Positions 9,201 through 63,262 of a stretch of 64,000 nt of DNA are shown piece by piece. The notes beneath the pieces are model-generated. The model did not search any database and was not told where the DNA came from. It saw only the letters and a program-made list of their open reading frames with translations. The position numbers and the translations under genes were made by a program. Each line of letters starts with the position of its first letter. Position 1 is the stretch's first letter. This stretch comes from Phoronis australis (Eukaryota > Animalia > Phoronida): the NCBI GenBank assembly GCA_002633005.1, contig NMRA01000008.1:2029942-2093941 (forward strand), read 5' to 3'.

Positions 9201-12200
9201 AATGTTATCCACTGTTTAACTTTTTCATCTCATGGGACTCAACTTGTTAGCTATTCCAGGACCAGTTCATTCAGCCTGTCAAGACAGATATCTTGCTTGC
9301 ATTTCAGAACAGTGCACGGTTGACTTGTCACATTCTTTTGACAGTTTGACAGCTTGCTGCCAAGTTACCCTAATCCCTGTTAGAACTGTGAAGTAGACTG
9401 AAGTTTACCTGTGAGGTTTAGTGTTAACTATTGAGTTTAGGTCTGGGTGATGCTATGATCATTGTAGTTGTTGCATGTGGTAGCACTGTTGTTTAGCTCT
9501 GTTTAAAAAGACCTTTTCAATGTAGTAATGAATCGAGTTTATGATTTTGTAGTAAATGAAACAAGTTAGTTGTAAAAAGTGAATTATGTTTTTAGAAAAA
9601 TATGAACGCGGTATCAAAGTTCAAACGCGGATAAAAATGCTAAAATACTGATTGCATCCAGGCAGTAACTAAATCAGAAAAACGTAAACGGCCTCCATAG
9701 GTGACTGTGCATGACTGTACAAGTTTTGGGCAGTCTAGGCAATGGGTAAGTGTCAGCTGTGCACCATTGTGCATCAAATAGACATTGGCCATTGTTCATA
9801 TTGAACCAATGAGGAGGCTACAACTACCAGGCCATAATATGTAACTCCAGTGTAGCATCCTACTGGATACGGCTGTGTTCTCCGTGGACATCACCCGCCA
9901 CATCTGACGGGTGTTTGTTAGGCACAAACTCATAAACAGACCAAAGGCTTTGTAATTTTCCTTTAAATCCATGCTGAGTGGCCGCTGTCACTCCACAGGT
10001 GTCCCTGCAAGGTAGCATGATGGTACTTCTGTCTGTGGAGCCCTGCAATGTCTTAAGCAGCTTTTGACCCCATGAGTAGTTAGTTTCATTATAATCCCAG
10101 ATGGAGGAGACCCCTTTACATGCGATTTGGTAATAGTACCTATGGAGGCTCTTTTATAACACCAGAGACATCATAGAACACTTTCCAGTGCTACATGGCC
10201 AGTGAAACTTAATTGTGGTAAAATCCGATCAACTTAGCACGCAATATGGTGGACAAGTGACGTTTCATTTGCTCATTTTTTGGGGAAAAATTGGCTGTAC
10301 CATATTAGTGCTTTACCTTATTCAAGTTTGTTCTCAACAATATCATTGATACATTGAGAGAATTCCTAACAATGTTAGAATACCTAAGGTCTTCTAACAT
10401 TGTTAAGTGATAGATAGAAAAGAGCAATTTTACCATCAATAATTTTGTGATCAGATTTTACCATACTGTGGACTCGGAATTCAGAAGCGTTCTTTGATGT
10501 GTTGTTTTTGCCTGAGTAAGTTTAGTCAGACAATCCATATGTCTCAACCCTCATCAAATGTTCCCCTCTTCCAATCATCATATTATGTGTTCTGGGGCCA
10601 AACAAGGTTTATTGCCTGTTTTAGTTCCCTGGGCCTATGATGTTACCATGTATTTAGGCGGAATCCCATGATCCGATATAATCAAAGAGTAAGAAGAAAT
10701 TTCACCATTTAAAACGTAGTGTAGACCTTATTCGCACAGTCACCATTTTAGTAGTGAGCCCCTTTTTAGCTTTAAAAAAACAAATGAGACATAAATATAA
10801 TGAGGCACGTGGAAAAATCATGCTTTGCGCTGTGATTAGTTGCAGAATGCATTGTATTTAAAACCGAAAAAGAGGCTCACTTTTTAAATGGCGATTGCGT
10901 GAATAAGGTGTATTGGGAAGGTTCAGTTTTCGAACAGGATAACTCACCCATTAGTCGGTGCTTTGCCATTTTCAAGCTGTGTACCATAGCTAACATTCCA
11001 AAATATTCTAAAATATCGGGAAGGTAGGCGGTTTGGCTACGAAATGTCTGGCGAAAATGCTATCAGTTTGGGGTAACTCTAAGTGCCAGTTAGTAAACAG
11101 TGCTACGGTAATCTCACCAAGTTAAGACACAAAATGGCTGACGCGTGAAATTTACTTTTGTAATGTTTGCCGTGAAATATGTATCACAAGAAATTGATGC
11201 TTTGCTCAAGTTATATACGATATCTAATATCAGATAATGTTCTTGGAAAAATATGACCATTCATAATAGAAACATTTGAAAAACGAAAAAGGGACAATTT
11301 CCACAATTGTTTTTTGTCCCCAGTTGGAGATAGTGAAAATAACAATATTGCAGTTATTCCCAAAAATGTTATCGAAAACGCCAGCAGTTTTGGGGTAGCA
11401 AACTGTTAATAAACCACTAGCAAACTGTTAGTAAACTGCTAGCAAACTTAGTAAACCGCTAGCAAACTGTTAGTAAATCGCTAGCAAACTGTTAGTAAAC
11501 CGCTAGCAAACTGTTAGTAAACCGCTAGCAAACTGTTAGTAAACCGCTAGCAAAAATGAGCCTTGATTTCGTTCTCATTGCTGGACTCTTTCTGCTACCA
11601 GCGAGAGTGCTAGTCAGAAGGCTAGTGTTTGAGTTAGTGTGTGAACCTAGTGCTACTGTCCACTGTTGTTTATAGATACGATGTGGCACAACTTCATCAA
11701 TCATTCGTCCATGGTGGAGATCACCAAGCGCACTGCCTACATTCATATTGATCTGCCCGGACAGGAGGACAGTGCCCAGCCCCTACCTGCCAAGTAAGTG
11801 TGTCTGGTATAGAACTGTGCGGAAGTGTTAGTCATTTCATAGACATTCTCCAAATACCTGCTGTCGGAAATAAATGCTATGTGTATTGGTCAAATTTAAG
11901 CTTGTGTAGAACCCTAGAAAAACACTAATCTAATTTTAGCTAACTTCATAACATCATATCTCAGAAATGGCTGATCAGATTCTTATGAAGTTTTCAAATA
12001 CTTTATGCACTTTCTCCAATTGTTTTTAAGAATGTCCACTTTAAGATTTTGCTTAATTTTCCTCAATTGAAAGATAGGGCTTATATGAGTTTTTTGAAAC
12101 AACTCAAAAGTTGCATAATGCGAAAAATGAAATGATAATTTCAAAAACTGTAACAGCATTTTTGAGATTTCGTCAAAATATATTTTTTTCTTGTAACCTG

Positions 12201-15200: not shown

Positions 15201-18200
15201 CCTTCATTTTGAGAACCAGTTTTCACCACTGAATAACGGACATCAAGCTGGTTCTCAAAATGTGAGCGCATTATACCCGACTATTGCCTATTGAACAGCA
15301 GTTAGTACTTATTGTTGTTCATTCCAGGATAAAGACTGTTGTATGCCTTGGTGAAGGTGCAGGAGCCAATGTTTTGGCAAGATTTGCTGTAAGTTGTGAG
15401 AACAATGAGCTTGATTTGCTGCACTACTGTGTTCACACTGCTCTGTGTAAAATAATAAGCTTGCTTGAGATTTCAAGTAGTTTTTCCTTTGCTCACAAGT
15501 ATAGACAATGCATTGCTTACTAGAGATTTCAAGGAGAGCCTCCAATTGAAACTTGTATTCCGTACTACAGCGCCCTCATTCAGCAGTGGGCTCATTATGT
15601 TGGTGAGTGCTTTTTCGGAAATCCCTGTGTGTACTTTTGATATGGAGGAAAAAATGTCGCAGGAACAGTGCAACACAGCGATGCGGACATGATGAGAGAT
15701 GGAGAATGCATTTTTGTCGAACATTACAAACAATTGAGAGCTTATGACTCCAAAAGCAATCACGTGGGCTTTTAGTCAATAAAAAACCTCGGGTACTGTC
15801 ACTTGGCACTTGTTATTATGTTGTAATCGAGCTTATCATACACTTGGGCTTGTGCCGCTTCACTGTGCTTAGTACTGCGGGACACTGTATTTTTACCATT
15901 AGGACTTTGATTGTGGATCCTGTTGGCAGTGTAGTCATGCCTCTGTACACTGGGACTCCACTGTTTTGATACTTCGCAACACTGCAGTTTTACCTGGCTT
16001 TCTAATTGTGGATCTTGTCCTTGCAGTGTAGTCAAACCTCCTGTGCACTGGGACTCCACTGTTCTGATACTTTGTAACACTGCAGTTTTACCTGACACTC
16101 TAATTGTGGATCTTGTCCTTACAGTGTAGTCATGCTTCCCGTACACTGGGACTCGTTCTGCTTCACTGTACTGGTACTACTGCTGGATTCATGGAGTCAA
16201 TCAAGGATAAGGTAAATATTCTATTTGCCATCATAACAAGTAGGTATGTGCCAGAAAAATGGAGAATTTTTGTCCAATTTTGCAACCAGAATTTTACAAC
16301 AGTCATGGAAATATGAGGAGGCACCATAGGTCGGTGGTTTTTAGCTCCGGTCTGTCATTAGGACAACAGGGCCCGGGTGTAATCTTTGTACTCGATAAAT
16401 ATAATTATTATTAAAAGTTTTCCATTCTTCTTTTGTGGAAACTCTAGATAAGTGTCTATTATTCTGTGCTCGAGTACATTGTGTATGTGGATGAATGTCT
16501 ATAATCCTATTGTGTACTTCATGACACCAGAAGATTTAAGTTTGAGTTTTAACTCAAAATTTTGAGTGTTTACTCGAAATCTCAAGTTTTTACTTGAGGT
16601 TGTAGCTCGAATCTATGGGTCATCAAGTGTGAATTTGGACGAGTCGCTCATTGTAGTAAATCATAATATACTTGAGCTCAGAATGATAGGGAGCTCTAAT
16701 TAATTTAAAAGTAGTACGGAAAATATCAAAGATAATTTTGATTTCGAGTACAAAGATTAAAACCCAAACCCTGGGTTCAAGTCCTGGCTAGACTGGCAGG
16801 CAATGAAAGAATTTCAAATACCAACTGGTTACGTGGGACTGGATACCACTGACCTCTAGAGGACAAGGAGGCATTTTATAACTTTTTTTAAAAGACATCA
16901 AATCTAATAACAAACACTGTAAAGGGGTCTTTTCACGAAGTTCAACTGCTCCCTATGCCACCCGCTACAACAGCTATGTAACTCCTGGTACACCTTGGTG
17001 GTGATATGAGTCACCAGTCCCACGAGATAGCCTCCATTGTTTCCTGAAAGTCTCTCATTGAGCACTGCACAAAATAAGTTTCTAAGTCCTCTGACCTCGT
17101 TCCCAGTTGGGGATGTATACAACGAATGAGAACCTGAATATAATTCGAATGCGATACCCGGGGATTTAGTTATTTTTATTTTTTGAATAGTCAAATAAAC
17201 TTAGTTTACAGGTGCATGAGCCGTGTTCATACGTGCGTGAGCCGTGCTCATACGTGCGTGAGCCTTGTTGTTCACTTAGCCTGACTGCACTTGTTATTAA
17301 GCAGTTGCTGCTGTTGATAAAATTACAATTCTGTAATTGTGCAAAGTGTCTGGAGAATTACCATGATGTTACTTCTTTTTACTGGGCTTAAGAGTTGAGA
17401 ATTGAAATCTAATATCCTGGTGTCACAGCCAAGCATTTGTATTGCAGCTATATACTTACGGTTTGAAGGATCAGTCAGTTAATTGTTTTTTTATGTTCCT
17501 TAACCTCAGGAAACCGTTAAAAATGGTATCCGGAAAAGAAATGATTTATACAATAAATCACACTTATTGTCAACCTGATTCAAACATATGACATAACGAA
17601 TGAAAATTTGATTCCAATGTCGGGTTGTTCGCAAAACGTGGAGTACATTAACAGCATCATACTAGAATATTTCACTCCTCTACAAAATAACTTAAAATGC
17701 TATTGTTTGCTGCCACCATGTTTGTTTCTAAAAAATATGTCAGCATGTTAAACAAGCTATTGAAGCCTCGTTCGAATCTTTGTTTAATTGTAGATCATTG
17801 GTTGGAAACTGGACCACATTGGTATCAATCCTGCTGCAGAACACTATCTGGTGCTGCACAGATTTGGACTGGTATGTAGTCTTGTCCTGTTGGTTATAAG
17901 CCAGATCACATTTCATGCAAGAAGTGCTCTGTTTGGTCCTTCTTGTGCTTAGCTCGCTCCGTGGTTGATGGTTGGCCGTCAACGTTATTGGCAGATGTCA
18001 TTTAACCTGGAACTTTTTGTCTATGTACGTGACATTGCAGCAGTTCTCTTTCTGGTCAATTCAAAGCTTGAGCAAGTTGTAGATAAAGTAGCGTGCTGTG
18101 AAGCTTGAAAGATGTGTTCCATCAGCTGAGATTTGTATGTCAGCTAGCATCTGCGCAACACCGTCTCTGTAAATACTATGACCAGATGTTAGATGCCACA

Positions 18201-40687: not shown

Positions 40688-40762
40688 CTACACTGGGACT
40701 TTCCACTGTTTGTACAAGTAGTCCACTTGCTTAGCACTCAAGCTGCATTTGTAAATCCTCAA
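40688..40762 (-). CDS. Terminal exon: end of LamG domain and stop
   Basis: ttatttcAG|[24 protein letters not shown]; completes the G-x-M-x-D-L-R-I-Y motif. Confidence 0.88.
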   Translation of the reverse strand: MRIYKCSLSAKQVDYLYKQWKVPV

Positions 40763-46700: not shown

Positions 46701-49700
46701 TAATAACTTTGCTCCCATACCTCGTCTCTTTCGAACTTCCAGGGCACCCAGGCTGCCCTGGTACAGGCGGTGGGTTTGTACAGGTGCGGGNTACGTGCCT
46801 GAACACCAGTTGAACCGCACGGGGCGTTGCACTTGCTCCAAGCAGAAAATTCACTCCATCCAGGCACAGCTAGAAATAATCGCTGGCACAATAAGTTTGA
46901 GGGGGTAAGAGATAATTTCAATTCATCGTTATTTTTTAAATTTTCATACTTTGGGGTTTCGTCTTTGGCTATAAATCATCAAAAAATGTGGAGATCACCT
47001 ACTAGTTTTTCTGTTCCAGTCGCCTAAACAAAGGCATCTTTAGCATAAATCTGAAATTCATATAGGTTACATGAAAGGCCCCCTCTAATTAAAATGGCCT
47101 GGAACGCGATAAAGAGTCAAAATTGCAATATTGAAAGTGGCTCTCTGCTACTGAAACAGAATTCAATCAGCTCACCAGGTATTTTTAGGGTTTGTTTGTA
47201 AAGATTCTCAATTTCTCTTCATACCAAAACATTTTCTTTTAGTTTCAAATTTCAAAAAACGACCTGTCAATTGCTCTCCACTTCGTCGATTTTTATCACA
47301 CAAGGCAAAGCATGTCTCTCCTTGTTTGGTATGGCAAGACACAGACGTAACACAAATCCCTAATATGAAAAACGTGACCTTTAACTTCAATCGACTTCAA
47401 GCCACTGACTGTGAGCGCATGCGCGCATTTATCATAAGTGGGAGGGATATTAGAAACTCTGTGGTTACCACAGAGATTTTCCTTCGCGAGAATTTCAAAA
47501 ATTGGGGATTTTGTGATTTTTTCTAAAAAATTTCACAAAGAGGAAAGTGAATTACTCTGTACTAGACGTTGCGAAATGGTACTTTCGTCAGGAATTGTTT
47601 AAAAGATATTTTGACGAGCTTTCGCGTTCCATGCCCCTTTAATGTTTTGAGTCCTTTTCTTTGACCGATGCCGGTTTTATTTTATCCACGCCAATTCGAT
47701 ACACTTAGTAATTTTCTGCACGGCGTTGCAATGCACATATATTAAGTAATGCACACGATTATGGAAACCCACAGCGGAAAAAATCCAGGACACTTATTTT
47801 CTATTCAAGAATTAAATTTTCTGCAGGACCAAAAATATGTACTCAAGACCAAAATTTATTGCGCCAGGACCTATAATTTATCTCATCATGACCAAAATTT
47901 AACACGTCATGACCGAAAATTTATCGTGATAGGGCACTAAAGCGCATTACGTTATGAAAATTTCACACGTCAGGAAAATTTCATGCAAGGAAAAATTCAT
48001 ACGAGGAGACCACGTGACCATCCAGAAGCACGTGACTCCTCAAAGAGATGACAAAATAGGTACACAATGTCTCACCGACGACTGTCTCAATATCGTGACA
48101 GTGAGGTTGAATTTCTGTCGTCTGTTCAACGTTGTACAACAGAAGCCAAAGTACTCTTGGATACAATACACTTGAATACGCCGGCTGTATATTACAACGA
48201 CACGTGATCTCCTGGCATGAAAATTTCTGCTGGCAAGAAATTTTCTGCAGACAAGAAATTTTTTCCTCGCATGAAATTTTCTCCCGGCAAGAAATTTTCT
48301 CTTTGCAAGAAATTTTATGTCCTGGCGTGTTAAACTTTGGTCCTGATGTGATAAATTAGAGGTTCTGACAGGACGAATTTCAGTTTTGAGTATATTTTTT
48401 GTCCTACAGAGAATTTAATTCTTTCCTAGAAAATTTGACGTGTCCTGGAATTTTTCCGCTTGGTTTTCCATACACGATAATGTCACACGAACTTTCTATC
48501 GAAATAGCTTGTTTTTATGCGGTTTAATTATGTTTCTCGTTTCACTAAGTTAATAAGTAAATGCCTTTTCTTGATTTTGAATACCATCAATTCTTGGCGT
48601 TTTAAGTTGACTTTTATACAAAAAGCTACACCGCTAATCTTTTCTCTATGCCCAATTCAAGTCCTATGTTACAATTGATGGATATGAATATTCCACAATT
48701 GGATCATTGCGCATATGCTTAATCTGTCCGAAAAATGTCAGTTGTTTTTTTAGAATGAAAGATACAGTACAGTATCACTATTCACAACTTACGTTGACAC
48801 GGTTTCTCGGAGCACGTCACCGTTTCCGTGGTGTTACCATTGCACGTATTTCCGTTGCTGCATTGTCGTGCTCTCGTTCTAATACCTTCATCACACGATA
48901 CAGAGCATTTGGACCAAGCTCCCCACTTGGACCAAGCCTCCTCTAAAGGACATTTGGGAACCTGTGAAGTGGTGCATTCTTCAGATCCCAAGGCCGGGCC
49001 TTCGCACTCTGCGCCACCGTGCATAGGTGAAGGATCATTGCACTCTCTTCGTCTGGTTCTCGCCCCAGTACCGCATGTTGCTGAGCAAGAGGACCAGTTA
49101 GACCAATTCGACCACCCACCATTAACTGGGCAATTTTTGATAGAGTTATAACAGCGTTCGTATTGCATGCTCTCGCCGCTGCAGTGTTTGCCATTGTTTT
49201 GTGGAGCAGGGTTCGTGCACTGACGCGACCTGGTTCGGTTACCAGGGCCACAAGTGCCAGAGCACGCCGACCAATCGCTCCATCTACTCCAGTCTCCGTT
49301 GATCGGACATAGTTTAATATCATTCACGCATGTTTTAGTTTCAACCCCGACACCAGGGCATTGTTTACCACCATGCTGGGGATTTGGTGAAGTACAAGAT
49401 CTGGATCTAGTTTTCACACCTTTACCACAATCACCACTACATTCTGTCCAGTCTGACCAAGCGCTCCATGCTCCGTCCACGGGGCAGGGTTTTATTCCAT
49501 TTGTACATTTTCTGCTTTCCGTACTTAAACCAAAACATCCTTTCCCCCCGTATTGTGGGCTTGGTTTAGCGCAAATGCGATGTCGTAATTGAATACCAGG
49601 ATCACATGTTCCAGAACAATCTCCCCAACTTGACCACTGACTCCATTTACCGTCCACAGGGCAATTAGCAATTTTGCCTTGACAGTTTACCCAAGCCAAA

Positions 49701-52700
49701 CGTGGACCCATGCACTCCTTACCACCAAATTGCGGGTATGGGTTGCTGCATTCTCTAGATCTCGTTTTAGTTCCAAAACCGCAAGTTACAGAACATTTCG
49801 AAAAGTATCCCCAGTTAGACCAGACACCATCAATCGGACAATCAGCGACTTTCGCAGTGCAACTTACAATTTCCGATGATTTGCCTTCACAGTTGGAGCC
49901 CATATATTGTGGTGGTGGGTTAGTGCACGTACGAGATCTTTCGCGCGTACCTGAACCACACGAAACGGAACAATCTGTAAACTGCGACCACGATGTCCAC
50001 TTACCATCAATTGGACACTTTTCAACTGCATTTTTACACACTTCTATGGCAGCACTCAGGCCTTGACACTGTTTCCCACCGTGTTTAGGAGAGGGATTAG
50101 TGCACGTCCGTTTTCTCGTTCGCTCCCCTTCCCCACATGTTCCTGAACACCCGGACCATGCACCCCAAATCGACCACTGGCCATCGATTGGACATTTTCC
50201 CAATGAATTCACACACTTTTCTTCATCAAAACTAGGACCCAAACAATATTTTCCACCGTGCTTAGGAGCAGGACTTGTGCAACTACGTGTTCTCGTCCGT
50301 TCTCCATAACCACACGTTCCTGAACATTCAGACCAAGCACCCCAAGGTGTCCATTTACCGTCTAGTGGACAGTCTCTCACTGCATTCACACAATATTCTC
50401 GGTCTACATTTGAGCCGCTGCATTGTTTCCCACCGTGTTCAGGATAAGGATTTGTGCATGTCCGCAACCTTGTCCTATCTCCATCACCACACGTTCCTGA
50501 ACATTCCGACCAGCTACCCCAAACAGACCATGAGCCATCGACTGGACAGTTCCTAATAGAATTGACGCACTTTTGTTCACCAGAACCCGAACCTAGACAT
50601 TCCTTTCCACCGTGTTCTGGAGCAGGATTGGTGCATGTGCGTGTTCTCATCCGCTTCCCTTCCCCACACGTTCCTGAACACTCAGACCAGGCACCCCAAG
50701 GTGACCATTTGCCATTGATAGGACATTTTTTAACTGTATTCAGACACGTTTCTTTATCAGAACTCTGACCTTGACATTGTTTCCCACCGTGTTCAGGAGA
50801 AGGGTTGGTGCACGTTCGCATTCTCGTTCTTTCTCCGTCACCACACGTTCCTGAACATTCCGACCAGGAACCCCAAGGTGACCATTTGCCATGGATCGGA
50901 CATTTTTTAACTGTGTTCAGACACGTTTCTTTATCAGAACTCTGACCTTGACATTGTTTCCCACCGTGTTCAGGAGAAGGATTGGTGCACGTGCGTATTC
51001 TCGTTCTTTCTCCGTCACCACAGGTTCCTGAACATTCCGACCAGGAACCCCACAGCGACCATTCACCATGGATCGGACACTTTCCAATTATATTCACACA
51101 GTTTTCTTGATCAAAAGCAGGACCTTGACACTGTTTCCCTCCGTGATTAGGAGCAGGATTTGCGCATGTGCGCGTTCTCGTCCTTTCTCCATCACCGCAC
51201 GTTCCTGAACATTCTGACCAGCTACCCCAAACGGACCATGAGCCATCAACTGGACAGTTCCTAATAGAATTGACACAAGTTTCTTCATTAGAACCCGAAC
51301 CTAGACACCCTTTTCCACCGTATCCTGGAGCAGGATTAGTGCACGTGCGTTTTCTCATCCGTTTCCCTTCCCCACACGTTCCTGAACACTTAGACCACAC
51401 ACCCCAAGGTGACCATTTGCCATCGATAGGACATTTTTTAACTGTATTCAGACACGTTTCTTTATCAGAACTCTGACCTTGACATTGTATCCCACCGTGT
51501 TCAGGAGAAGGGTTGGTGCACGTTCGCATTCTCGTTCTTTCTCCGTCACCACACGTTCCTGAACATTCCGACCAAGCACCCCACAGCGACCATTTGCCAT
51601 GGATCGGACACTTTCCAATTGTATTCACACACTTTTCTTGATCAGAAGCAGGACCTTGACACTGTTTCCCTCCGTGATTAGGAGCAGGATTTGTGCATGT
51701 CCGGGTTCTTGTTCTTTCTCCATCACCACATGTTCCTGAACACTCGGACCAGGTACCCCAGGGTGACCATTTTCCATGGATTGGACACTTTTCAACTGTA
51801 TTCACACACTTTTCTTGATCAGAAACCGGACCCTGACACTGTTTCCCTCCATGTTTAGGAGCAGGATTTGTGCACGTCCGCGTTCTCGTTCTTTTTCCAT
51901 CACCACATGTTCTAGAACACTCGGACCAGGTACCCCAAAGGGACCATGCGCCGTCAACTGGACAGTTGCTCAAAGAATTGAAGCACTTTTCTTTATCAGA
52001 ACTCGAACCTTTACAACTTTCCCCGCCTTGTTCTGGAGCAGGATTGGTGCATGTCCGCGTTCTCGTTCGTTCCCCTTCCCCACAAGTTCCTGAACAATCG
52101 GACCACGCACCCCAAATAGACCATTTACCATCTATTGGACACTTTCCTATGGAGTTTACGCACTTTTCTTCATCAAAATTAGGCCCTATGCAATACTTTC
52201 CACCATACTTAGGAGCAGGACTTGCGCACTGACGTGTTCTCATTCGTTCCCCAACACCACATGTTCCTGAACACTCAGACCAAGCACCCCACAGCGTCCA
52301 TTTACCGTGTACTGGACAGTCTCTCACAGCATTCACACAATATTCTCGGTCTACATTTAAGCCGCTGCACTGTTTCCCACCGTGTTCAGGATGAGGATTT
52401 GTGCACGTCCGTGATCTCGTCCGCTCACCGTCACCACAAGTTCCTGAACACTCGGACCAGGCACCCCAAGGTGACCATTTGCCATGAATTGGACACATTC
52501 CGACAGTATTCACGCACTGTTCTTGATCAGAGCTCGGACCAAAACATTGCTTCCCACCGTGTTCAGGAGCAGGATTTGTGCATGTCCGCATCCTTCTCCT
52601 TTCTCCATCACCACACGTTCCTGAACATTCCGACCAGCTACCCCAAACAGACCATGAGCCATCGACTGGACAGTTCCTAATAGAATTGACGCATTTTTGT

Positions 52701-55700
52701 TCACCAGAACCCGAACCTAGACACTCCTTTCCTCCGTGTTCTGGAGAAGGATTGTTGCATGTGCGTGTTCTCATCCGCTTCCCTTCCCCACACGTTCCTG
52801 AGCACTCGGACCAGGCACCCCAAGGTGACCATTTGCCATCTATAGGACATTTTTTAACTGTATTCAGACACGTTTCTTTATCAGAGCTCGGACCTTGACA
52901 TTGTTTCCCGCCGTGTTCAGGAGAAGGATTGGTGCACGTGCGTATTCTCGTTCTTTTTCCGTCACCACACGTTCCTGAACACTCAGACCAGACACCCCAA
53001 GGTGACCATTTGCCATGGATCGGGCATTTTTTAACTGTGTTCAGACACGTTTCTTTATCAGAGCTCGGACCTTGACATTGTTTCCCACCGTGTTCAGGAG
53101 AAGGATTGGTGCACGTGCGTATTCTCGTTCTTTCTCCATCACCACAGGTTCCTGAACATTCCGACCAAGCACCCCACAGCGACCATTTGCCATGGATCGG
53201 ACACTTTCCAATTGTATTCACACACCTTTCTTGATCAGAAGCAGGACCTTGACACTGTTTCCCTCCGTGATTAGGAGCAGGATTTGTGCATGTTCTCGTT
53301 CTTGTCTTTTCTCCATCGCCGCACGTTCCTGAACATTCTGACCAGCTACCCCAAACGGACCATGAGCCATCAACTGGACAATTCCTAATAGAATTGACAC
53401 ACTTTTGCTCATTAGAACCTGAACCTAGACACCCTTTTCCACCGTATCTTGGAGCAGGATTGGTGCACGTGCGTGTTCTCGACCGTTTCCCTTCCCCACA
53501 CGTTCCTGAACACTCGGACCAGGCACCCCAATATGACCATTTGCCATCGATCGGACATTTTTTGACAGTATTCAGACACGTTTCGTGATCAGAACTCGGA
53601 CCTTGACATTGTTTCCCACCGTGTTCAGGATAAGGATTGGTGCACGTGCGTGTTCTCGTTCGTTTACCATCACCACATGTTGCTGAACACTCAGACCAGG
53701 CACCCCACAGCGACCACTTGCCATGGATTGGACAGTTTCCAACTGCATTCAAACACTTTTCTTGATTATAATCCGGACCTTGGCATTGTTTCCCTCCATA
53801 TTTAGGAGCAGGATTGGTGCATGTCCGCGTTCTAGTTCGTTCCCCTTCCCCACAAGTTCCTGAACAATCGGACCACACACCCCAAAGAGACCATTTACCA
53901 TCTATTGGACACTTTCGTATTGAATTTACGCACTTTTCTTCATCAGAATTAGGCCCTATGCAATACATTCCACCGTGCTTTGGAGCAGGACTTGTGCACT
54001 GACGTGTTCTCGTTCGTTTCCCGTCACCACACGTTCCTGAACACTCAGACCAAGCACTCCATGGCGTCCATTTACCGTCCACTGGACAGTCTCTGACTGC
54101 ATTTACACAATATTCTCGATCTAAATTTGGGCCGTTGCACTGTTTCCCACCGTGTTCAGGAGAAGGATTGGTGCATGTCCGCGATCTCGTCCGCTCACCG
54201 TCACCACAGGTTCCTGAACACTCGGACCAGGCACCCCAAAGTGACCATTTGCCATGGAGTGGACACTTTCCAATTGTATTCACACACTTTTCCTGATCAG
54301 AGTTTGGACCCTGGCATTGTTTCCCACCGTGTTCAGGAGCAGGATTGGTGCACGTCCGTGTTCTCCTTCTTTCTCCATCACCACACGTTCCTGAACACTC
54401 GGACCAGACACCCCAAAGCGACCACTGGCCATGGATCGGACATTTTGCAATTGTATTCACACACTTTTCTTTATCAGATGTTGGACCTTGACAGGGTTTC
54501 CCTCCGTGCTCTGGAGAAGGATTTGAGCATGTCCGTGATCTTGTCTTCTCCCCTTCACCACAGGTCCTTGAACACTCGGACCAGGCACCCCAAGGTGACC
54601 ATTTTCCATGGATTGGACATCTTCCAATTGTATTTACACATTTTTCCTGATCAGAACTCGAACCTTGACACTGTTTCCCTCCATGTTCAGGAGCAGGATT
54701 TGTACATGTCCGTGTTCTCGTTCTTAATCCATCACCGCATGTTCCTGAACACTCGGACCAAGCACCCCAAAGGGACCATGTGCCATCAACAGGGCATTTG
54801 GTAATGGAATTGACGCATTTTTCTTTATCAGAACTGGAATCTTGACACCCTTTTCCACCGTGTTCTGGAGCAGGATTTGTGCACGTCCGTGTTCTTGTTC
54901 TTTCTCCTTCTCCACACGTTCCTGAGCACGCAGACCAAGCACCCCAAATCGACCATTTGCCATGGATCGGGCACTTTTCGACTATATTCACACACTTTTC
55001 TTTATCAGAACTCTTTCCTTGACACAAGTTCCCACCGTGCGCAGGAGCAGGATTTGTGCAAGTACGCGTTCTCGCCCGTTCCCCTTCACCACACGTTTCT
55101 GAACACTCGGACCACGCACCCCAAAGAGACCATTTACCCTGTACTGGACATTTTCCTATTGTATTTACACACTTTTGTTCTTCAGAACTAGGCCCAAGGC
55201 AATACTTTCCGCCGTGCTTAGGTGCAGGATTTGCGCATCGGCGTGTTCTCGTTCGTTCTCCATCACCACACGTTCCTGAACACTCAGACCAAGCACCCCA
55301 CGGCGTCCATTTACCATCCACTGGACAGTCTTTCACTGCATTCACGCAATGTTCTTGATCAACTTTTGGACCAGTGCATTGTTTCCCACCATGTTCAGGA
55401 GAAGGATTTTTGCACGTCCGCGTTCTCATCCGCTCCCCGTCACCACAAGTTCCTGAACACTCAGACCAGGCACCCCAGAGAGACCATTTACCATGTATTG
55501 GGCACTTCTGAACTGTGTTCACACATTTTTCTTGATCAGAATTCGGGCCTTGACATTGTGTCCCACCGTGTGCAGGAGAAGGATTTGTACACGTCCGTTT
55601 TCTCGTCCGCTCCCCGTCACCACATGTTCCTGAACACTCAGACCAGGCACCCCAAAGCGACCATTTGCCATTGACTGGACAATTTTTCATTGTATTCACA

Positions 55701-58700
55701 CATGGCTCAGTATCAGTTTTTGTGCTTCCACATTGTTTCCCACCAAATTGAGGCGCTGGATTGGTACAAGTTCGTGTTCTCGTCCGTTCTCCTTTACCAC
55801 AGGTTCCAGAACATTCCGACCAAGTACCCCAAAGCGACCACTTGCCGTGAACTGGACAATTTTTTATTGAATTTGCACAAATTTCTTGATCTGAACTTTG
55901 ACCATGACACTGTTTGCCACCATTTTCAGGAGCAGGATCTGTGCATGTCCGTGTTCTTGTCCGTTTCCCATTACCACATGTTCCTGAACACTCAGACCAG
56001 GCTCCCCAAGGCGTCCACTTGCCATTTATAGGGCATTTTCCAATTGAATTCACACACTCTTCTTTATCGGATCTAAGCCCTACACAATACTTTCCACCGT
56101 GTTTAGGAGCAGGATTCGTACACGCCCGAGTTCTTGTCCTTTCCCCGTCACCACACGTTCCCGAACACTCGGACCAGGTGCCCCAAGAAGCCCATTTACC
56201 ATTTACTGGACAGTCTCGCACTGAATTCACACAATTTTCTCTGTCTAATCCCGAGCCTTCGCATTGTTTCCCACCGTGATCAGGAGAAGGATTTGTACAT
56301 GTCCGTGATCTCGTCCTCTTTCCGTCACCACAAGTTCCGGAACATTCAGACCAGCTTCCCCAAAGTGACCATTTGCCATGGATTGGACATTTTTCAACTG
56401 TGTTCACACATTTTTCTTTATCAGAAGTCGGACCTTGGCACTGTTTCCCACCGTGTGCAGGAGAAGGATTTGTACACGTCCGTTTTCTCGTCCGTTCCCC
56501 GTCACCACATGTTCCTGAACACTCAGACCAGCCACCCCAAAGCGACCATTTGCCATTGACTGGACAATTTTCCATTGAATTCACACATGGCTCTGTGTCA
56601 GTATTTGTGCTTCCACATTGTTTCCCACCAAATTGAGGCGCTGGATTGGTACAAGTTCGTGTTCTCGTCCGTTCCCCTTCACCACACGTTCCTGAGCAGT
56701 CCGACCAAACACCCCAATTTGTCCATTTGCCATCTACAGGACAGTTCTTCATTGAATTGACACACTTTTCGTGATCTGAACTGGGACCTTGACATTGTTT
56801 TCCACCGTGTACGGGAGCAGGATTTGTGCACGATCGCGTTCTCGTTCGTTCCCCAACACCACATGTTCCTGAACACTCGGACCAAGTACCCCAAAATGAC
56901 CATTGGCCATGGATTGGACATTTCCCAATTGTATTCACACACGTTTCTTTGTCAGAACTGGTGCCTTGGCACTGTTTACCACCGTGCTCTGGCGTAGGAT
57001 TTGTGCACGTCCGTTTTCTCGTCCGTTCACCATCACCACACGTTCCTGAACAATCGGACCAGGCACCCCAAAGCGACCATTTCCCATTGACTGGACAATT
57101 TTCCACTGAATTCACACAAGGCTCTGTCTCAGTACTTGCGCTTCCACAATGTTTCCCGCCAAACTTAGGTGCTGGATTGGTGCACGTTCGTGTTCGCCTT
57201 CTTTCTCCTTCTCCGCAGGTCCCAGAACACTCCGACCAAGTACCCCAAAGCGACCATTTCCCATTGACTGGACAATTTTCCACTGAATTCACACAAGGCT
57301 CTGTCTCAGAACTTGCGCTTCCACATTTTTTCCCGCCAAATTTAGGAGCTGGATTGGTGCACGTTCGTGTTCGCCTTCTTTCCCCTTCTCCGCAGGTCCC
57401 AGAACACTCCGACCAAGTACCCCAAAGTGACCATTTGCCATTGACTGGACAATTTTCCACTGGATTCACACAAGGCTCTGTCTCTGTACTTGTGCTTCCG
57501 CATTGTTTCCCGCCAAACTGAGGTGCTGGATTGGTGCACGTTCGTGTTCGTTTTCTTTCTCCTTCTCCGCAGGTCCCAGAGCACTCCGACCAAGTACCCC
57601 AAAGCGACCATTTCCCATTGACTGGGCAATTTTCCACTGGATTCACACAAGGCTCTGTCTCTGTACTTGCGCTTCCACACTGTTTCCCGCCAAACTGAGG
57701 TGCTGGATTGGTGCACGTTCGTGTTCGCCTTCTTTCTCCTTCTCCGCAGGTCCCAGAACACTCCGACCAAGTACTCCAAAGCGACCATTTGCCATCTATT
57801 GGGCACTTTTCTCGTGCATTTACACAAGGCTCTGATTCACTGGGGTAGCCTTGACATTCTTTTCCGCCATTGCTTGGAGATGGATTAGTGCACGTTCGTG
57901 TTCGTTTTCTGTTGCCTTCGCCGCATGTTCCTGAGCACTCTGACCACTGGGTCCACGCTGACCATACACCGTCAACAGGACACTTCACAGAATTCGTACA
58001 AACCTTTACCTCACTTGGGGATCCTTCACAACTTTTACCTCCATTGGCTGGAGTAGGATTCGAGCACTTTCTTGTTCTGGATTGTTGTCCCAGACCGCAA
58101 CTTCCAGAACATTTCCCCCAATCACTCCAAAGCGACCAGCCTCCATTCACTGGACACGCCTTTTCGAAGCATTTGCTGCAAACAGAAAAATTTGTACTTG
58201 AAAAACATATAGGCTACTGTAACGTCGACTGTTCACTAAACTGTACGTTACCTATCCACAACTACACTAAGTTTGTTGCCTATTTGTATGGATTAGTTAT
58301 TTACAGAATGTCTAAGAAAAATAAACTTACGTGGTTTCGACGGAATTTCCACTGCAATCAAGACCACCATTTGACGGAGCGGGATTGTTACACTTTCGAG
58401 TCCGAGTACGCGCACCGTTGCCACACGTTTTAGTGCATTTCCCATATTCACTCCAGCTGCTCCATGAACCATCAACCGGCACTTGTGGACCTGGAAGGGA
58501 AACCGTCATGTTTTTATTAGAAATCTACGACAGCCTTCTGTCACTTTAGTCTCTTGTCAAATTGATTTAGACTACTTACCGTTATGAAATTGGTTTCAGT
58601 TCTTGCTTAGACTATCAATAATTTGAATGAACTGACGGCGTAGCTTTACTTGAGACCAAACTCAAGAAGTTTGGGGTTGACGGGAAAAAAGTCATTGCTT

Positions 58701-60232
58701 TGTTGAATTCCCTCATCTGTGTTATAGTCACAATCGATTCTACTTTCTTCATGCTATGGCTTTCGTCAGGTTTCTTGATACACAGTGAAAGTAAGTGGTT
58801 TTGTTGAACTGTAGTGATTTTATCGAAATCATTCACTCGTTCTAGCTGTTATCTTTGCTCATTAGTGGCTGGAAGGAAGTTGGTTCTGTTACACAGCATT
58901 GTGGGTAAAGATTGTAGAATAACTTAAAACGGCGCTGTGGTGTTCTGGGAAGTGATTGGGTTCCACATCCCGAATTCAATTCTATACTTTTGCGGTCGAA
59001 AGAAAACGCAATGTATAATTAGCCTACTTTTTGTAAGGTATGGCCGATAACACGCACTTTCGGAACCGAATAGTAGAAGTTCAGAAAGATCTATCAGCTT
59101 TTCCGTTATCAATGTCTGCAGTGCAACTCACTATGCAACAGTATCACTTCATTGGCATCCAAATGACCAAAGCAAACTATTCACAATGCAAAATGGTGAT
59201 TAGTACAACTGCAGTGTGCCCTACGGACGCACGGCATTGGGTAACCACTCGCGTAGAATCAGCGGTATTCCGGTGGGAAGTGTTGTGTTTGTAAAATCAG
59301 TGAGTGAAACCAGTGCGCCGAATTGGTAGAGCACAGGGCTTTGACGGAGACATTACTGTTACACTTGTAAAGAATAGTATCGAATGCTTACAACGCGTTG
59401 ATCTTTGATTTCTGTTATTACAAAATTGCCGTTATTCAAAATTGTTTTGATATTTTATAGAATGCTTAATCAAAAGACAATAAAAATTCTGGCATGTGGA
59501 TATTATTCCCGGTCAACTTACTGCTACACGTGATGCCGTTTCCTGTGTAACCTTGGTTACATATACATTTACGAGTTCCCTGTTCAACTGTACATCGGGC
59601 ATGTGCCGAGCATTTGTGTGTCTGCGCTGTTGGATCAGATGAGGGCGTCTTGCACGTGTACTGTAGTGTACAGGCGTCATTCAGCCATGTTTCACCCAGC
59701 TGAAATGATAATAACGCGTTCATGCACCTACTCATGCGGTGTACTTAGGAGAAGAAAGCTATTATTACTAACATTTAGCCTGGTACAAAAGATCTCAAGT
59801 AGCTTACCGTCAGCGAGACAATGCTCATTGTCCCCAGCTGGTCCCAGCAGAGACGTGGCTTATCCCAATACCGACCGTTATGCACAGATGGCGTTTCAGC
59901 AAATTACGCCTCGCTCTGGCTATGTAATTCATGTTGCTATAAGTACCTTTCGAACATACGGACACCTTTGAAGGATGTCGTTGATGTTTTCAAATCCTTC
60001 CCCAGCAAACAGTTTCATTCCGGCAAGTTATTCGCGAACGAAATCGTCAGCGAGCCATTTTTTCAGAAGTCCTTTTACTCCACAAATCTTTAATGAAAAA
60101 TGGCTACGCTTACGATTTCGTTAGTGTGAAAAGAACCTTAAGATATGTGACCTTGATGGTTAGCCAAGTGCGTGTGCGTGTGCATGTGTGTGTGTGTGTT
60201 TGTGTGTGTGTGCGTGTGTGAGAGAGAGGGTG

Positions 60233-60263
<31 letters not shown>

Positions 60264-63262
60264 TTGCGCGCGCACGTGCGTACTTCGAGGCCATTGGCCC
60301 ATAGTACAGCAAATCGATATGCGAAGATATAGTCCCAAGAAAATCCTCTGATGAACGTATCCAGTAACATATCCATCAGAGGAGAAATACAAGACAGTAA
60401 TTTATCAGTGATTAAAAGAATTTGCANNNNNNNNNNNNNNNNNNNNNNNNNNNNNNNNNNNNNNNNNNNNNNNNNACAGCAATGGGTTTATGTCAAGACT
60501 GAATTAGCAACAGAGATGTAATGTGATAAGCTGTTACATATTTCTTAAGACATTTTCGGGACTGGGTGAGGAACTCAAGACGTAAAGCTTAATAATTTGC
60601 CAAGTGTATCAAAGAAATGGCATAAGAATATTTATTGAAACTAAAAAATGAATAACAGTTACAGAACACTCAAAATTCCACGTTATAGACATACTCTTGT
60701 AGTTGTAGCGACAGCAGACGATAATGTAGGCCTAGTTCTTGGGGTGGTCTATTCCAATAGGAAGCGATGAATCAGCGCGGCTTTGCGTGATTTTGCATTT
60801 CACATCATAAAGAGTTCCATAGCAACTCGAGTATGAGTGTCAGATTTGAGTACGTTTGGAGTCTACTCGAAATCCGACATTAGATACGCTTTTTTGAGTA
60901 CGACTCCAGTGAGCACGATTTTGAGTATGAAATCTCGAGTATGAGTATGAGTCTGAGTACGGAGATTGGAGACCGGGCCCAGGTTGGTGCAGAAATCTTC
61001 CCAGACTTACCGGGTATGTTCATTAGGTCACATGATATGGCCACAGGTGGCGTGCTGACCAGACTTAAAAATGTTTGCGATATACATTTCCACTGCGGTT
61101 TAAGAATTACGTATTTATATGCTAACAGTGACTTATAAAACCCAATGAACAGGGTGTTTTTTAAATATTTTTTAAATTGTTTAAACCTGTGTAACACGTG
61201 TCGCTACGATAAAACAAAATCCATTCATTCATCCATTCCTTCATTCGTTCATTCATTGTATAGAAAGTTTGTTTATCTTAAACACGGCAAAGTGGGGACA
61301 CGCATGCATGCATGCGCATGTGACTCTGCATGTACACTGAATTAGTTTATCGACGTATATTCCGTTTTTCATGTCTATCATGAACGTTTGTCTTTTGATC
61401 ACGACACCCTGCCGTAACCTGAACCCAACACTCAGGCGCTGACCTGTCACACACTCGCCACGTATTGTCTCCCGGGCGACTTAGTCAATTACTGTTGATT
61501 TGCTTGTCTTAGTCCAATACACGTGCAGTGGTACAGCCGCGCACACACGCAGTTCACAGAGTCTGCTTGAGTTGATTGTCTGGCACTTCGTTTGCTTATA
61601 CTGCTGTGCGTGAACTTGGAATCCTGCTTAATCTCAAGATTAAGCGGAAGTGAGTGTTTGTGAACTTGGGTAAAAAGGGGAAATTTTTTGTTCGGTGAAA
61701 AGAATTTTTGTAATTATTTGCCTCGCGATCAACTATTTTCTCCTTTACCGTAACTTGTGTCGCTGAACCGGAGGAATATGTGAATGGCCAAATTTCTTAT
61801 TGTTTGGTGAAACTGATCGCCCGTAGTTGAAAAGGTTGTTAAAATTGACATTATTTTATTCAAATATAACTTGATTTAGTGCAGTGCAATTTTTCATGAA
61901 CATGAACATGTTTATTTGAGTGAACTTGTCAAGTTGCCTCGCGTATTCCAAATTCACGCAACACTCACTTCCGCTTAATCTTGAGATTAAGCAGGATTCC
62001 AAGTTCACGTACAGCAATACAACCTGGTTTTCAGAGGTTCCGTGTCTTTCAGTATGCACTTCCCAAAGCATATCGTAGGAGTAAATCTTTAAAGTGCTTA
62101 AAACGACCGTCTACCTTGTTTTCACTGACAAGTAACTACATTCTTGTCAGCTTCATAAAACCTCTCTTTATAGCACTGCAAACGTGATTTCAATATCCCA
62201 AAAACGAAAAATCAGAAGAAAAGCGACTTCAGTTAAAGGTTTTTAAGCTCCACGGACATGAGTGCAACGTATGAGCGTATCTAGCGTCAGTGTATGCCCA
62301 CCAACACGCGAGTTTCGTGCAATAATTTGTGCCATATCCGCGCTTCTCCGTCTGATGTCCCACGGGAAAGTGAAAAGAGCCATCGTGGTCAAATACTGAC
62401 CATGTGATATGTTTCAACCAATAAATGCTCGTAACTCGAGACCAGCTTATTAACATATCGTCAGATAGTGTTTGCAGGGGTTCTAAATTGACAGCTAATG
62501 GACTCCTGGTGTTGGTTTTGATGTTTTTTGTTATGAAATTGATGATTTAAGTTTGAGGACAGCTAACTGTCAAAGCATGGCAAGTGGTGTTCAGATCATT
62601 TAGCAAGTGACGAGCTTTGACTTCAACGGAAATGCAAAATCTTTATGAACGAACCGTAAAAATAACTGGTGAAGAATTTGCTTCTGTTTCAGTGGCAGAG
62701 AACCACTTTGAACAAGGCAATTTAGTTTGTTTTTCGCGTTCCATGTCTCTTTATAGATGACCCCGCAGCGTCATTTTTGAAATCCAATGTTTTGGCTCAT
62801 ATTTGGGGGGCGGGTGTTTCCTAATGCTGCGAGTTAGTGTTCTTATTATACTTCATAAAACCGTGGGCCGAATGGAGTCGATTGGTTGCTTCAGTGCCAA
62901 GGTACAGCTCCGCAACTTTGGATGGACGTAATTAGCGGTTCGTGAGACTTGAAAAAAGAGACGCATACTTACGACATTTAGTTACGGTTCTCCATCCCTT
63001 GCCGGGATACCCAGCTTCTTTACATTTTTTTGCAAATTCTTCCAAACTGCCACACGCAGCCTTCTTAGCCTCTGGCAAGTTGTGTTCTAAAGCACACACG
63101 TCATATTTACAGTTCTCGAAATATTCACTAAATTTCACTGAGTTCATGCACTCTTGGAAGGGACCACTTGGGTTACTTGTTGCACCACAATATTCGTTCG
63201 TGAATATGGCCGTACGCAAAGCCCCGGAGCACGATGGGATTTTCGTTCTGGGTGCTTGACAT
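40688..63262 (-). CDS. Giant extracellular multidomain protein: C8 - TILa/EGF-like - 56x TSP1 - 3x CBM14-like - LamG/ConA-like (Pif-like C-terminus); 5' incomplete
   Basis: 13 exons totalling 11,534 nt. All joins from 59699 to the stop are GT-AG and phase-consistent once the single N at 46791 is removed. Only the C8-to-EGF join (phase 1 vs 0) needs a missing exon. Confidence 0.85.
41338..41510. mobile_element. Palindromic element whose two arms are Penelope-type hammerhead-like motifs
   Basis: ~60-bp inverted arms. Right arm CAGAGGA-T-GATATT-tgatt-AATGTC-GAAAC-GTCG; left arm (- strand) CTGAGGA-T-G...AATATC-GAAAC-ATCG. Confidence 0.55.
41622..41804 (-). CDS. Exon: LamG/ConA-like domain part 3
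   Basis: [20 protein letters not shown]...[20 protein letters not shown]; ctttAG / GTAAGT; 183 nt, phase 0-0. Confidence 0.92.
42027..42133 (-). CDS. Exon: LamG/ConA-like domain part 2
   Basis: [36 protein letters not shown]; ctcaacAG / GTTCGT; 107 nt, phase 1-0. Confidence 0.8.
43257..43496 (-). CDS. Exon: LamG/ConA-like domain part 1
   Basis: [52 protein letters not shown]...SVSFWYK...GLLANGDC; ttccAG / GTGAGT; 240 nt, phase 1-1. Confidence 0.9.
43844..44011 (-). CDS. Exon: third, degenerate CBM14-like module
   Basis: [21 protein letters not shown]...[16 protein letters not shown]; gtgtAG / GTAAGT; 168 nt, phase 1-1. Confidence 0.83.
44219..44425 (-). CDS. Exon: second CBM14-like module + Thr-rich linker
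   Basis: [10 protein letters not shown]...[41 protein letters not shown]; ttgcAG / GTAAAT; 207 nt, phase 1-1. Confidence 0.87.
44750..45034 (-). mobile_element. Partial inverted copy of the 16367-16773 MITE
   Basis: Ends in aaagatttgaccccgggccct; internal blocks match by eye. Confidence 0.6.
45165..45374 (-). CDS. Exon: chitin-binding type-2 (CBM14/peritrophin-A) domain, Pif-like
   Basis: [55 protein letters not shown]; gttttAG / GTATGT; 210 nt, phase 1-1. Confidence 0.88.
45667..45851 (-). CDS. Exon: TSP1 repeat 56 (this frame is absent from the ORF track)
   Basis: [61 protein letters not shown]; ctttcAG / GTAAGC; 185 nt, phase 2-1. Confidence 0.9.
45950..46089. mobile_element. 140-bp foldback element
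   Basis: aatcctacactcgtct...atgatatgggcaaaactt / aagttttgcccaggtcat...agacgagtgtaggatt. Confidence 0.7.
46721..46869 (-). CDS. Exon: TSP1 repeat 55 (contains a spurious single N at 46791)
   Basis: [48 protein letters not shown] once the N is removed; tttctAG / GTATGG; phase 1-2. Confidence 0.85.
47760..48472. mobile_element. 713-bp non-autonomous foldback DNA transposon with long imperfect TIRs and a CACGAT duplication
   Basis: tatggaaacccacagcggaaaaaatccaggacac... / ...gtgtcctggaatttttccgcttggttttccata; complementarity extends >140 bp; cacgat at 47754-47759 and 48473-48478. Confidence 0.8.
48793..58175 (-). CDS. Giant 9,383-nt exon encoding 53 tandem TSP1 repeats
   Basis: Open frame of 3127 full codons; ~59-aa unit CP(I/V)xGxWSxWxxWSxCSGTCGxGxRxRxRxCTNPxPxxGGKxCxG; tttgcAG acceptor at 58176-58177, GTAAGT donor below 48793; phase 2-1; units counted by hand. 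Confidence 0.95.
58331..58490 (-). CDS. Exon: first TSP1 repeat
   Basis: [44 protein letters not shown]; ttccAG / GTAAGT; 160 nt, phase 1-2. Confidence 0.92.
59522..59699 (-). CDS. Exon: TILa-like + EGF-like module
   Basis: [16 protein letters not shown]...[29 protein letters not shown]; tttcAG / GTAAGT; 178 nt, phase 0-1. Confidence 0.88.
60168..60262. repeat. (TG)n microsatellite (a smaller one at ~18862-18912)
   Basis: Imperfect TG dinucleotide run. Confidence 0.95.
60427..60475. other. Assembly gap (49 N)
   Basis: Run of N. Confidence 1.
61602..62016. mobile_element. 415-bp MITE with ~65-bp TIRs and an ATAC duplication
   Basis: tgctgtgcgtgaacttggaatcctgcttaatctcaagattaagcggaagtgagtgtt / aacactcacttccgcttaatcttgagattaagcaggattccaagttcacgtacagca; atac on both flanks. 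Confidence 0.8.
62973..63262 (-). CDS. Exon: C8 domain (VWD-associated; mucin/FCGBP/zonadhesin type)
   Basis: [33 protein letters not shown]...[16 protein letters not shown]...WRTVTKC; ttttccAG / GTAAGT; 290 nt, phase 2-1. Confidence 0.9.

Follow-up and report, generated by a model that had tools for sequence, protein, structure and literature searches.

A putative giant exon of 53 tandem TSP1 units in Phoronis australis and probable traces of unequal exchange within it

How can several dozen cysteine-rich TSP1 domains come to lie in a single exon, when copies of the same domain on either side of it are divided by an intron? The question is raised by a 64,000-nucleotide (nt) stretch of the genome of the phoronid Phoronis australis (GCA_002633005.1, contig NMRA01000008.1, positions 2,029,942 to 2,093,941), hereafter the window, whose minus strand carries a gene with 56 TSP1 units, 53 of them whole within one open segment of 9.4 kb. 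Coordinates below are positions within this 64-kb window, and units are numbered 0 to 55 in the reading direction of the gene.

A long open exon of TSP1 units

A six-frame scan of the window revealed a single long open frame, on the minus strand, from 58213 to 48785. Within it, the segment 58175-48793 (9,383 nt, phase 2-1) comprises the tail of unit 0 and 53 whole units; it is flanked by an acceptor (TTTGCAG at 58176) and a donor (GTAAGT at 48792), both canonical, and is free of stops in one frame only. We read it as most likely a single coding exon. Scanning it with the Pfam profile TSP_1 (PF00090) detected 53 stretches, with a total of 1846 bits, so that open frame and domain count agree with a preliminary description of the locus, made from the sequence alone, which had placed 53 TSP1 domains in an intronless 9.4-kb exon. 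That description also had the array built of 177-nt units lacking both stops and indels. The exon is indeed stop-free, and 50 of the 53 units measure exactly 177 nt (59 amino acids, aa), but units 1, 52 and 53, of 58, 60 and 51 aa, depart from this length; units 2-51 share a common 59-aa register.

The hallmarks of TSP1 (W-x-x-W-x-x-W, C-x-x-S/T-C, R-x-R-x-R and six cysteines) were all recovered by profile match and column conservation, and the six cysteines are present in every array unit (53/53). The central exon encodes 3,143 residues, including 322 Cys and 158 Trp, and the array contains 104 WxxW motifs, which we take to be C-mannose sites, 52 CxxS/TC motifs, presumably O-fucose sites, and four N-sequons; a motif count found no RGD in the TSP1 array. 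The solved sequences closest to these units are the repeats of properdin and thrombospondin-1.

Exchange between units and selection upon them

Along the exon, a homogenised core of units 3-46 (57802-50015; 44 x 177 nt) lies between a divergent 5' edge (units 1-2, 58153-57803) and a divergent 3' edge (units 47-53, 50014-48797). The core units, with an average identity of about 70-76%, form one clade (FastTree support 0.90) among 207 units from the window, Mercenaria, Mactra and Haliotis. Compared with the other 177-nt units, unit 2 has a mean nucleotide identity of 0.61 and units 47-51 of 0.51-0.56, and in units 2 and 47-51 the synonymous differences from the core have reached saturation (pS 0.82).

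Duplications and recombinants can be traced within the core. The block of units 26-32 (53681-52529, 1,151 nt; block ends are sliding-window estimates) has a second copy 12 units downstream, at about 51557-50405, with 92% identity, and units 3-6 represent a recent one-unit duplication series. At 15 of 43 junctions, the best partners of the tail of one unit and of the head of the next were themselves consecutive, compared to 1.5 in shuffles (2000 shuffles; maximum 7), and head and tail of one and the same unit shared their best partner in just 10 of the 44 core units. Chimeric units exceeded the 99% null in 15 of 44 cases and the null maximum in 10 of 44, as against 0-3 in shuffled replicates, the null being the whole procedure repeated on 25 codon-column shuffles. 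Unit 44 (50545-50369) is a crossover product, its head being 97% identical to that of unit 32 and its tail 95% identical to that of unit 33, two units whose heads and tails are mutually just 73% and 68% alike. As in a concertedly evolving array, units are closer to each other than to relatives, recombinant units occur, and the edges are divergent. Taken together, the core clade, the block duplications (that of 1,151 nt included), the linked neighbours and the chimeras (15/44) support the growth by intra-exonic unequal crossing-over that had been proposed for this array, and we regard them as the trace of unequal exchange within one exon. An exon of phase 2-1, at first with few units like exon 45851-45667 of the same gene today, would have expanded in place; the edge units would have escaped later homogenisation, and crossovers in register would have preserved both the frame and the six cysteines.

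The length of such an array could also be an artefact of the assembly, inflated by joined alleles or reads, and an assembly gap and a stray N do lie nearby. However, none of the 50 units of equal length is identical to another (best 97%), no exact match between units is longer than 92 nt, and even in the closest pairs 17% of synonymous sites are different, which exceeds the usual difference between alleles. Inflation is thus unlikely, and we rate it as highly improbable; an undercount of units or a length polymorphism is possible.

The variation among units bears the mark of purifying selection. Over the 946 pairs of core units 3-46, pooled non-synonymous (dN) and synonymous (dS) divergences were 0.19 and 0.98 (ratio 0.19), and the 20 closest core pairs gave a dN/dS of 0.18, values that describe the array and are no formal test, as the pairs are not independent. 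Departure from the majority base at codon positions 1, 2 and 3 was 0.15, 0.08 and 0.29, the third varying most, and the Cys codons differ synonymously among units while Cys itself is invariant. In a uniform-mutation simulation, frame and six cysteines survived in a unit with a probability of 0.084 when divergence was 10%, and in none of 5000 runs when it was 36%, the value observed at four-fold sites; the intact array cannot be put down to chance. The comparison of dN/dS between units, named beforehand as a check, supports the proposal that selection has kept the frame and all six cysteines.

The exon might nevertheless be real without being used whole, the 9.4-kb form then being one isoform beside shorter ones produced by internal splicing or by a donor at 50005. 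This donor (ATG/GTAAGT, minus strand) matches the consensus, is in phase 1, is compatible with the acceptor that follows and would remove units 47-53 and nothing else; it sits where unit 47 begins and the homogenised core gives way to the old units, and a possible acceptor is found 54 nt downstream (49951, minus strand). However, the motif at 50005 arises simply from Gly-Lys-Trp codons, and units 47-53 keep their six cysteines and open frame despite synonymous sites that are saturated where measured, which implies that they are translated at least sometimes. In addition, a pyrimidine fraction of at least 0.69 was found at none of the 202 internal YAG sites, a weak test, with real acceptors here ranging from 0.44 to 0.88. 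We hold partial use of the exon to be quite improbable. As a separate matter, selection against cryptic donors was considered and rejected: GTAAG occurs 3 times against 12.2 expected in a global codon shuffle, but 3 against 3.7 in a per-column shuffle, and it ranks 43rd among 559 pentamers, so there is no case for depletion.

Flanking exons, gene architecture and relatives

The exon at 58490-58331 (minus strand, phase 1-2) encodes the head of unit 0 and ends at ET-T, two codons before the fifth Cys, and that at 46869-46721 (minus strand, phase 1-2) encodes the head of unit 54 and ends at ET-R, in the same position. In both, a phase-2 intron interrupts the codon two before the fifth Cys (58331 and 46721), a position at which none of the 53 array units is interrupted. 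The tail of unit 54 is followed by the whole of unit 55 in the exon at 45851-45667 (minus strand, phase 2-1; Pfam TSP_1, 1.3e-8). The preliminary statement that the flanking copies are split by the same phase-2 intron is thus correct for units 0 and 54 and does not extend to unit 55, a third flanking copy that is not split and belongs to a short subtype without the P-x-P loop. The layout of a head exon (phase 1-2) followed by an exon with a tail and whole units (phase 2-1) is found in two places, with 53 whole units in the first and a single one in the second. Exon 46869-46721 contains a single N at 46791, which, when counted as a base, breaks the frame, with a first stop at model residue 3298; the model is open when this N is skipped, so automatic annotation would truncate the gene at this exon. 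Short tandem arrays (18-bp and 22-bp units) were observed at 48208-48316 and 47843-47925, in the intron directly after the giant exon.

Thirteen exons of the gene are readable in the window, the 56 TSP1 units being spread over four of them, and the domain order is C8, TILa, EGF, 56 TSP1, three chitin-binding-type domains and laminin G, all on the minus strand. The C8 exon (63262-62973; Pfam C8, E 1.4e-15) ends in phase 1, and the gene continues upstream past the window. From the next exon, with a TILa-like piece and EGF (59699-59522, phase 0-1; Pfam EGF_3 1.2e-10, TILa 2.6e-4 and below cut-off), the model is phase-consistent and open to a stop at 40688, skipping the N at 46791. The intron between these two exons contains an assembly gap of 49 N (60427-60475), which adjoins a (GT)n microsatellite at 60168-60263. 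Downstream of the TSP1 units, a chitin-binding CBM_14 exon (45374-45165; Pfam 1.7e-6) is followed by a second, CBM_14-like exon with a short Thr run (44425-44219; Pfam 0.0042, below cut-off) and a third Cys-rich exon (44011-43844), all three in phase 1-1. The third has no Pfam match and was classed as CBM_14-like from its place inside full-length tail alignments to Pif-like proteins. A laminin G-like domain with the stop is distributed over four exons (43496-43257, 42133-42027, 41804-41622 and 40762-40688), of which the third matches Pfam Laminin_G_3 (3.4e-10) and the first does not; a search with a laminin-G exon yielded no homologue in a set of 39 candidates. A weak donor in this part, G/GTTCGT at 42027-42022 (minus strand), is the one donor of the model that is not GTR.

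A search with the array returned 699 proteins of 1728-5501 aa, which indicates that long TSP1 arrays are common in invertebrates; the best 120 of the 699 were considered further. Among the first 60 of these, which were measured for homogenisation, some arrays surpass that of the window, and in six invertebrate proteins (P0035, P0057, P0012, P0018, P0015 and P0003) identity to the nearest unit is 0.93-1.0. Recent homogenised expansions of TSP1 thus recur among invertebrates. In 11 of the best 120, one of them only partly, the tail was matched as well, namely in molluscs: Mercenaria (XP_053398910, P0008), Mactra (P0004), Mya (P0005), Dreissena (P0049) and Haliotis (XP_067654843, P0016), with paralogues. 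Four bivalve-type proteins have 50 units, the Dreissena model 26, and abalone proteins 28-51, rising to 57 in a cluster member; arrays of 3, 6 and 25-36 units also exist among the members, and since long arrays come first in the ranking of the search, the count of about 50 is biased.

Like the phoronid gene, these mollusc proteins, labelled 'SCO-spondin-like', carry a pure tandem TSP1 array (50-51 units in the long ones) directly before a homologous chitin-binding/laminin-G tail, but their head, where present, consists of VWA and/or Ig instead of C8/TILa/EGF. Identity to the nearest unit is 0.55-0.59 in their arrays of 50-51 units, compared to 0.85 in the window array, and an abalone paralogue (P0057) differs from these frozen arrays in being homogenised (1.0). 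For 38, 32 and 45 of 50 Mercenaria units, the best match in three other bivalve-type proteins had the same position, as opposed to 2 of 50 against abalone, and 41 same-position pairs were recovered in the tree of 207 units, showing that the long bivalve arrays are old and frozen in position. Four proteins, 'SCO-spondin-like' or unnamed (P0004, P0005, P0006 and P0008), have exactly 50 units each, largely matched by position, and apparently constitute an undescribed orthologue group of composition VWA-TSP1x50-CBM14-LamG. Positional orthology between window and mollusc units was not found, unit 55 pairing weakly with bivalve unit 48 (0.80). Database isoform pairs differ by whole TSP1 units in 20 of 23 cases, the same fourth unit being skipped in two abalone species; in both Mercenaria pairs, the differences fall outside the array. 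Where repeats are near-identical, predicted isoforms may be artefacts, and the pairs are indirect evidence, not extending to the bivalves, of exon-split arrays; in the same indirect way they lend weight to the earlier statement that TSP1 arrays usually are.

A search with the chitin-binding exon gave 139 matches, the best tails coming from Lingula and Pif-like mollusc proteins, with alignments of 330-430 residues (best E 2e-36, 27% identity over 409 aa); the window tail also aligns with the TSP1-bearing mollusc proteins. Hemicentin, SCO-spondin and ADAMTS, named as comparators at the outset, have to give way to this Pif-type chitin-binding/laminin-G tail and to the unnamed mollusc proteins of about 50 units, which are closer. 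In a tree of 25 tails, which omits 23 isoform or close rows, 7 partial matches and P0004, P0197 and P0254, the window tail grouped with Lingula and unnamed proteins without TSP1 (100/99), on long branches, and not with mollusc Pif-like proteins or with the TSP1-bearing clades of bivalves and abalones. A single clade of the 11 TSP1-bearing rows was rejected by an approximately unbiased test run after the tree had been seen (p 4e-5); the result fits repeated gain and repeated loss of TSP1 alike. The tail profile matched 3 proteins among those of 883-2520 aa, none with TSP1 in its listed domains, and an Atlas search with a stored homologue returned only generic laminin-G clusters, under 0.9.

A different history can be proposed, in which an ancestor already possessed a long, exon-split array, one or a few cDNA-mediated events then removed its introns, and homogenisation followed. 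In its favour, arrays of about 50 units occur in mollusc proteins that have this tail, single units are skipped in abalone isoforms, introns are absent from the nine old edge units of the phoronid exon as well, and the split flanking units 0 and 54 show that an intron was once present in this type of unit. However, every intron on both sides of the giant exon has been retained, those on the 3' side included, the 59-aa register of units 2-51 contrasts with 58 aa in bivalve and about 64 aa in abalone units, window and mollusc units are not paired by position, and the tail tree rejects a common origin with the mollusc TSP1-bearing genes. We regard loss of introns from an ancestral array as unlikely.

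In our judgement the locus probably contains one true exon, grown by unequal crossing-over under purifying selection, that encodes a secreted spacer rod between a mucin-type C8/TIL head and a predicted chitin-binding/laminin-G tail. Several observations weigh against this interpretation. The window does not reach the 5' end, the signal peptide or any vWD, and the change from phase 1 at the end of the C8 exon to phase 0 at the start of its successor means that an exon is missing between C8 and TILa. This phase 1-to-0 exon, expected to encode TIL, may lie in the 49-N gap (60427-60475), no TIL-like Cys pattern having been found in the readable part of the intron. Being short and devoid of the P-x-P loop, unit 55 is no direct template for the 59-aa units, and the founding 59-aa unit still calls for one step of intron loss or conversion. 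None of the best 120 of the 699 array matches exceeds 48% identity, which hinders comparison with orthologues, and the donor at 50005 could shorten the exon to 8,171 nt. As to the rod, structure predictions were unusable both for five units alone (predicted local distance difference test, pLDDT, 42.5) and for three units with a 41-row alignment (pLDDT 34.8), and rod shape, chitin binding and tissue are putative.

Elsewhere in the window, an exon of the NDRG family was detected at 15266-15520 on the plus strand (Pfam Ndr, E 6e-8), and further minisatellites are found at 11396, 12228, 12975, 15910, 26678 and 31725.

Known systems and possible meaning

Giant repeat exons and TSP1 arrays of about 50 units are each already known in print. 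Black widow AcSp1 has an exon of about 19 kb with intragenic recombination and a Ka/Ks of 0.22 (PMC3563967), the number of cys-domains varies inside the central exon of MUC5AC/MUC5B, where new domains arise from central ones (PMC11344006), and flatworm Mile-ap2 has a repeat exon of at least 15 kb (PMC9229212). All share with the phoronid gene one very large exon of tandem units, but their repeats are silk, PTS or unnamed units, and not a pure run of six-cysteine TSP1; AcSp1 units, moreover, are more than 99% alike, compared to about 70-76% on average in the core described here. Hydra HyTSR1 consists of 48 tandem TSP1 domains without other conserved domains and is reported in granular mucous gland cells (PMC4820225). 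Its database isoforms (P0009) drop 4-5 units, which suggests several exons. A limited search of the open-access literature, supplements excluded, found neither a single-exon TSP1 array of this size nor the combination of a TSP1 rod with a Pif tail; the accessible text of PMC13425148 does not describe that architecture, and that of PMC6745481 contains nothing on TSP1 arrays.

The Pif/BMSP family shares with the phoronid gene CBM_14 and CBM_14-like domains followed by laminin G, and is defined, by Shimizu et al. 2024 (PMC11291548), on a VWA clade. In PifCCP, as described there, a Sushi/CCP repeat array stands between the head and the CBM_14/laminin-G tail; 'thrombospondin' and 'TSP' have 0 occurrences in that main text. 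The head visible in the window is C8/TILa/EGF, the 5' end, where a VWA domain of the Pif clade would stand, falling outside it; the laminin-G part of the gene has no low-complexity insert. Of the vWD-C8-TIL assemblies found at the N-terminus of gel-forming mucins, C8 was matched in the window and TILa was below cut-off, while the TIL exon is missing and a vWD would lie beyond the window; the large central exon of those mucins encodes PTS repeats instead of TSP1. SCO-spondin, whose name databases give automatically to such proteins, combines C8/TIL-type modules with many TSP1. Its LDLa repeats, its alternation of TSP1 with TIL/vWC and its terminal cystine knot were not seen in the part of the gene within the window, which instead has 56 TSP1 units in direct tandem and ends in laminin G and a stop. 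We therefore do not file the gene as Pif/BMSP, SCO-spondin or mucin.

If each TSP1 domain measures about 5 nm, 56 of them would form a semi-rigid secreted spacer of about 280 nm. The tail, by its predicted binding, would fix the protein to chitin within an extracellular matrix, for instance mucus, a tube, a cuticle or a shell, and the spacer would hold out a C8/TIL-type head, which may polymerise in the manner of mucins. It is conceivable, although we consider it doubtful, that a rod of about 50 TSP1 was joined to a Pif-type tail up to three times independently, in this lineage, in bivalves and in abalones, and by different genetic routes, which would be a recombining giant exon here, an ancient frozen array in clams and exon-per-unit duplication in abalone. 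If so, these proteins would make up a family, as yet without a name, of molecular spacers anchored on chitin, and selection would act on their length of about 250-300 nm.

Nothing in these findings alters the general understanding of giant exons or of concerted evolution. What the array offers is a clear example, open to dissection, of disulfide-rich domains multiplying within a single exon: its edge units are relics, its block duplications are dated and a product of crossover can be seen. It can be compared with relatives that appear to have built a similar rod from separate exons. It also draws attention to a group of chitin-binding proteins with a TSP1 rod, unnamed as a group and labelled 'SCO-spondin-like' in databases, and, if the length of about 50 units is convergent, makes spacer length in chitin-based matrices testable.

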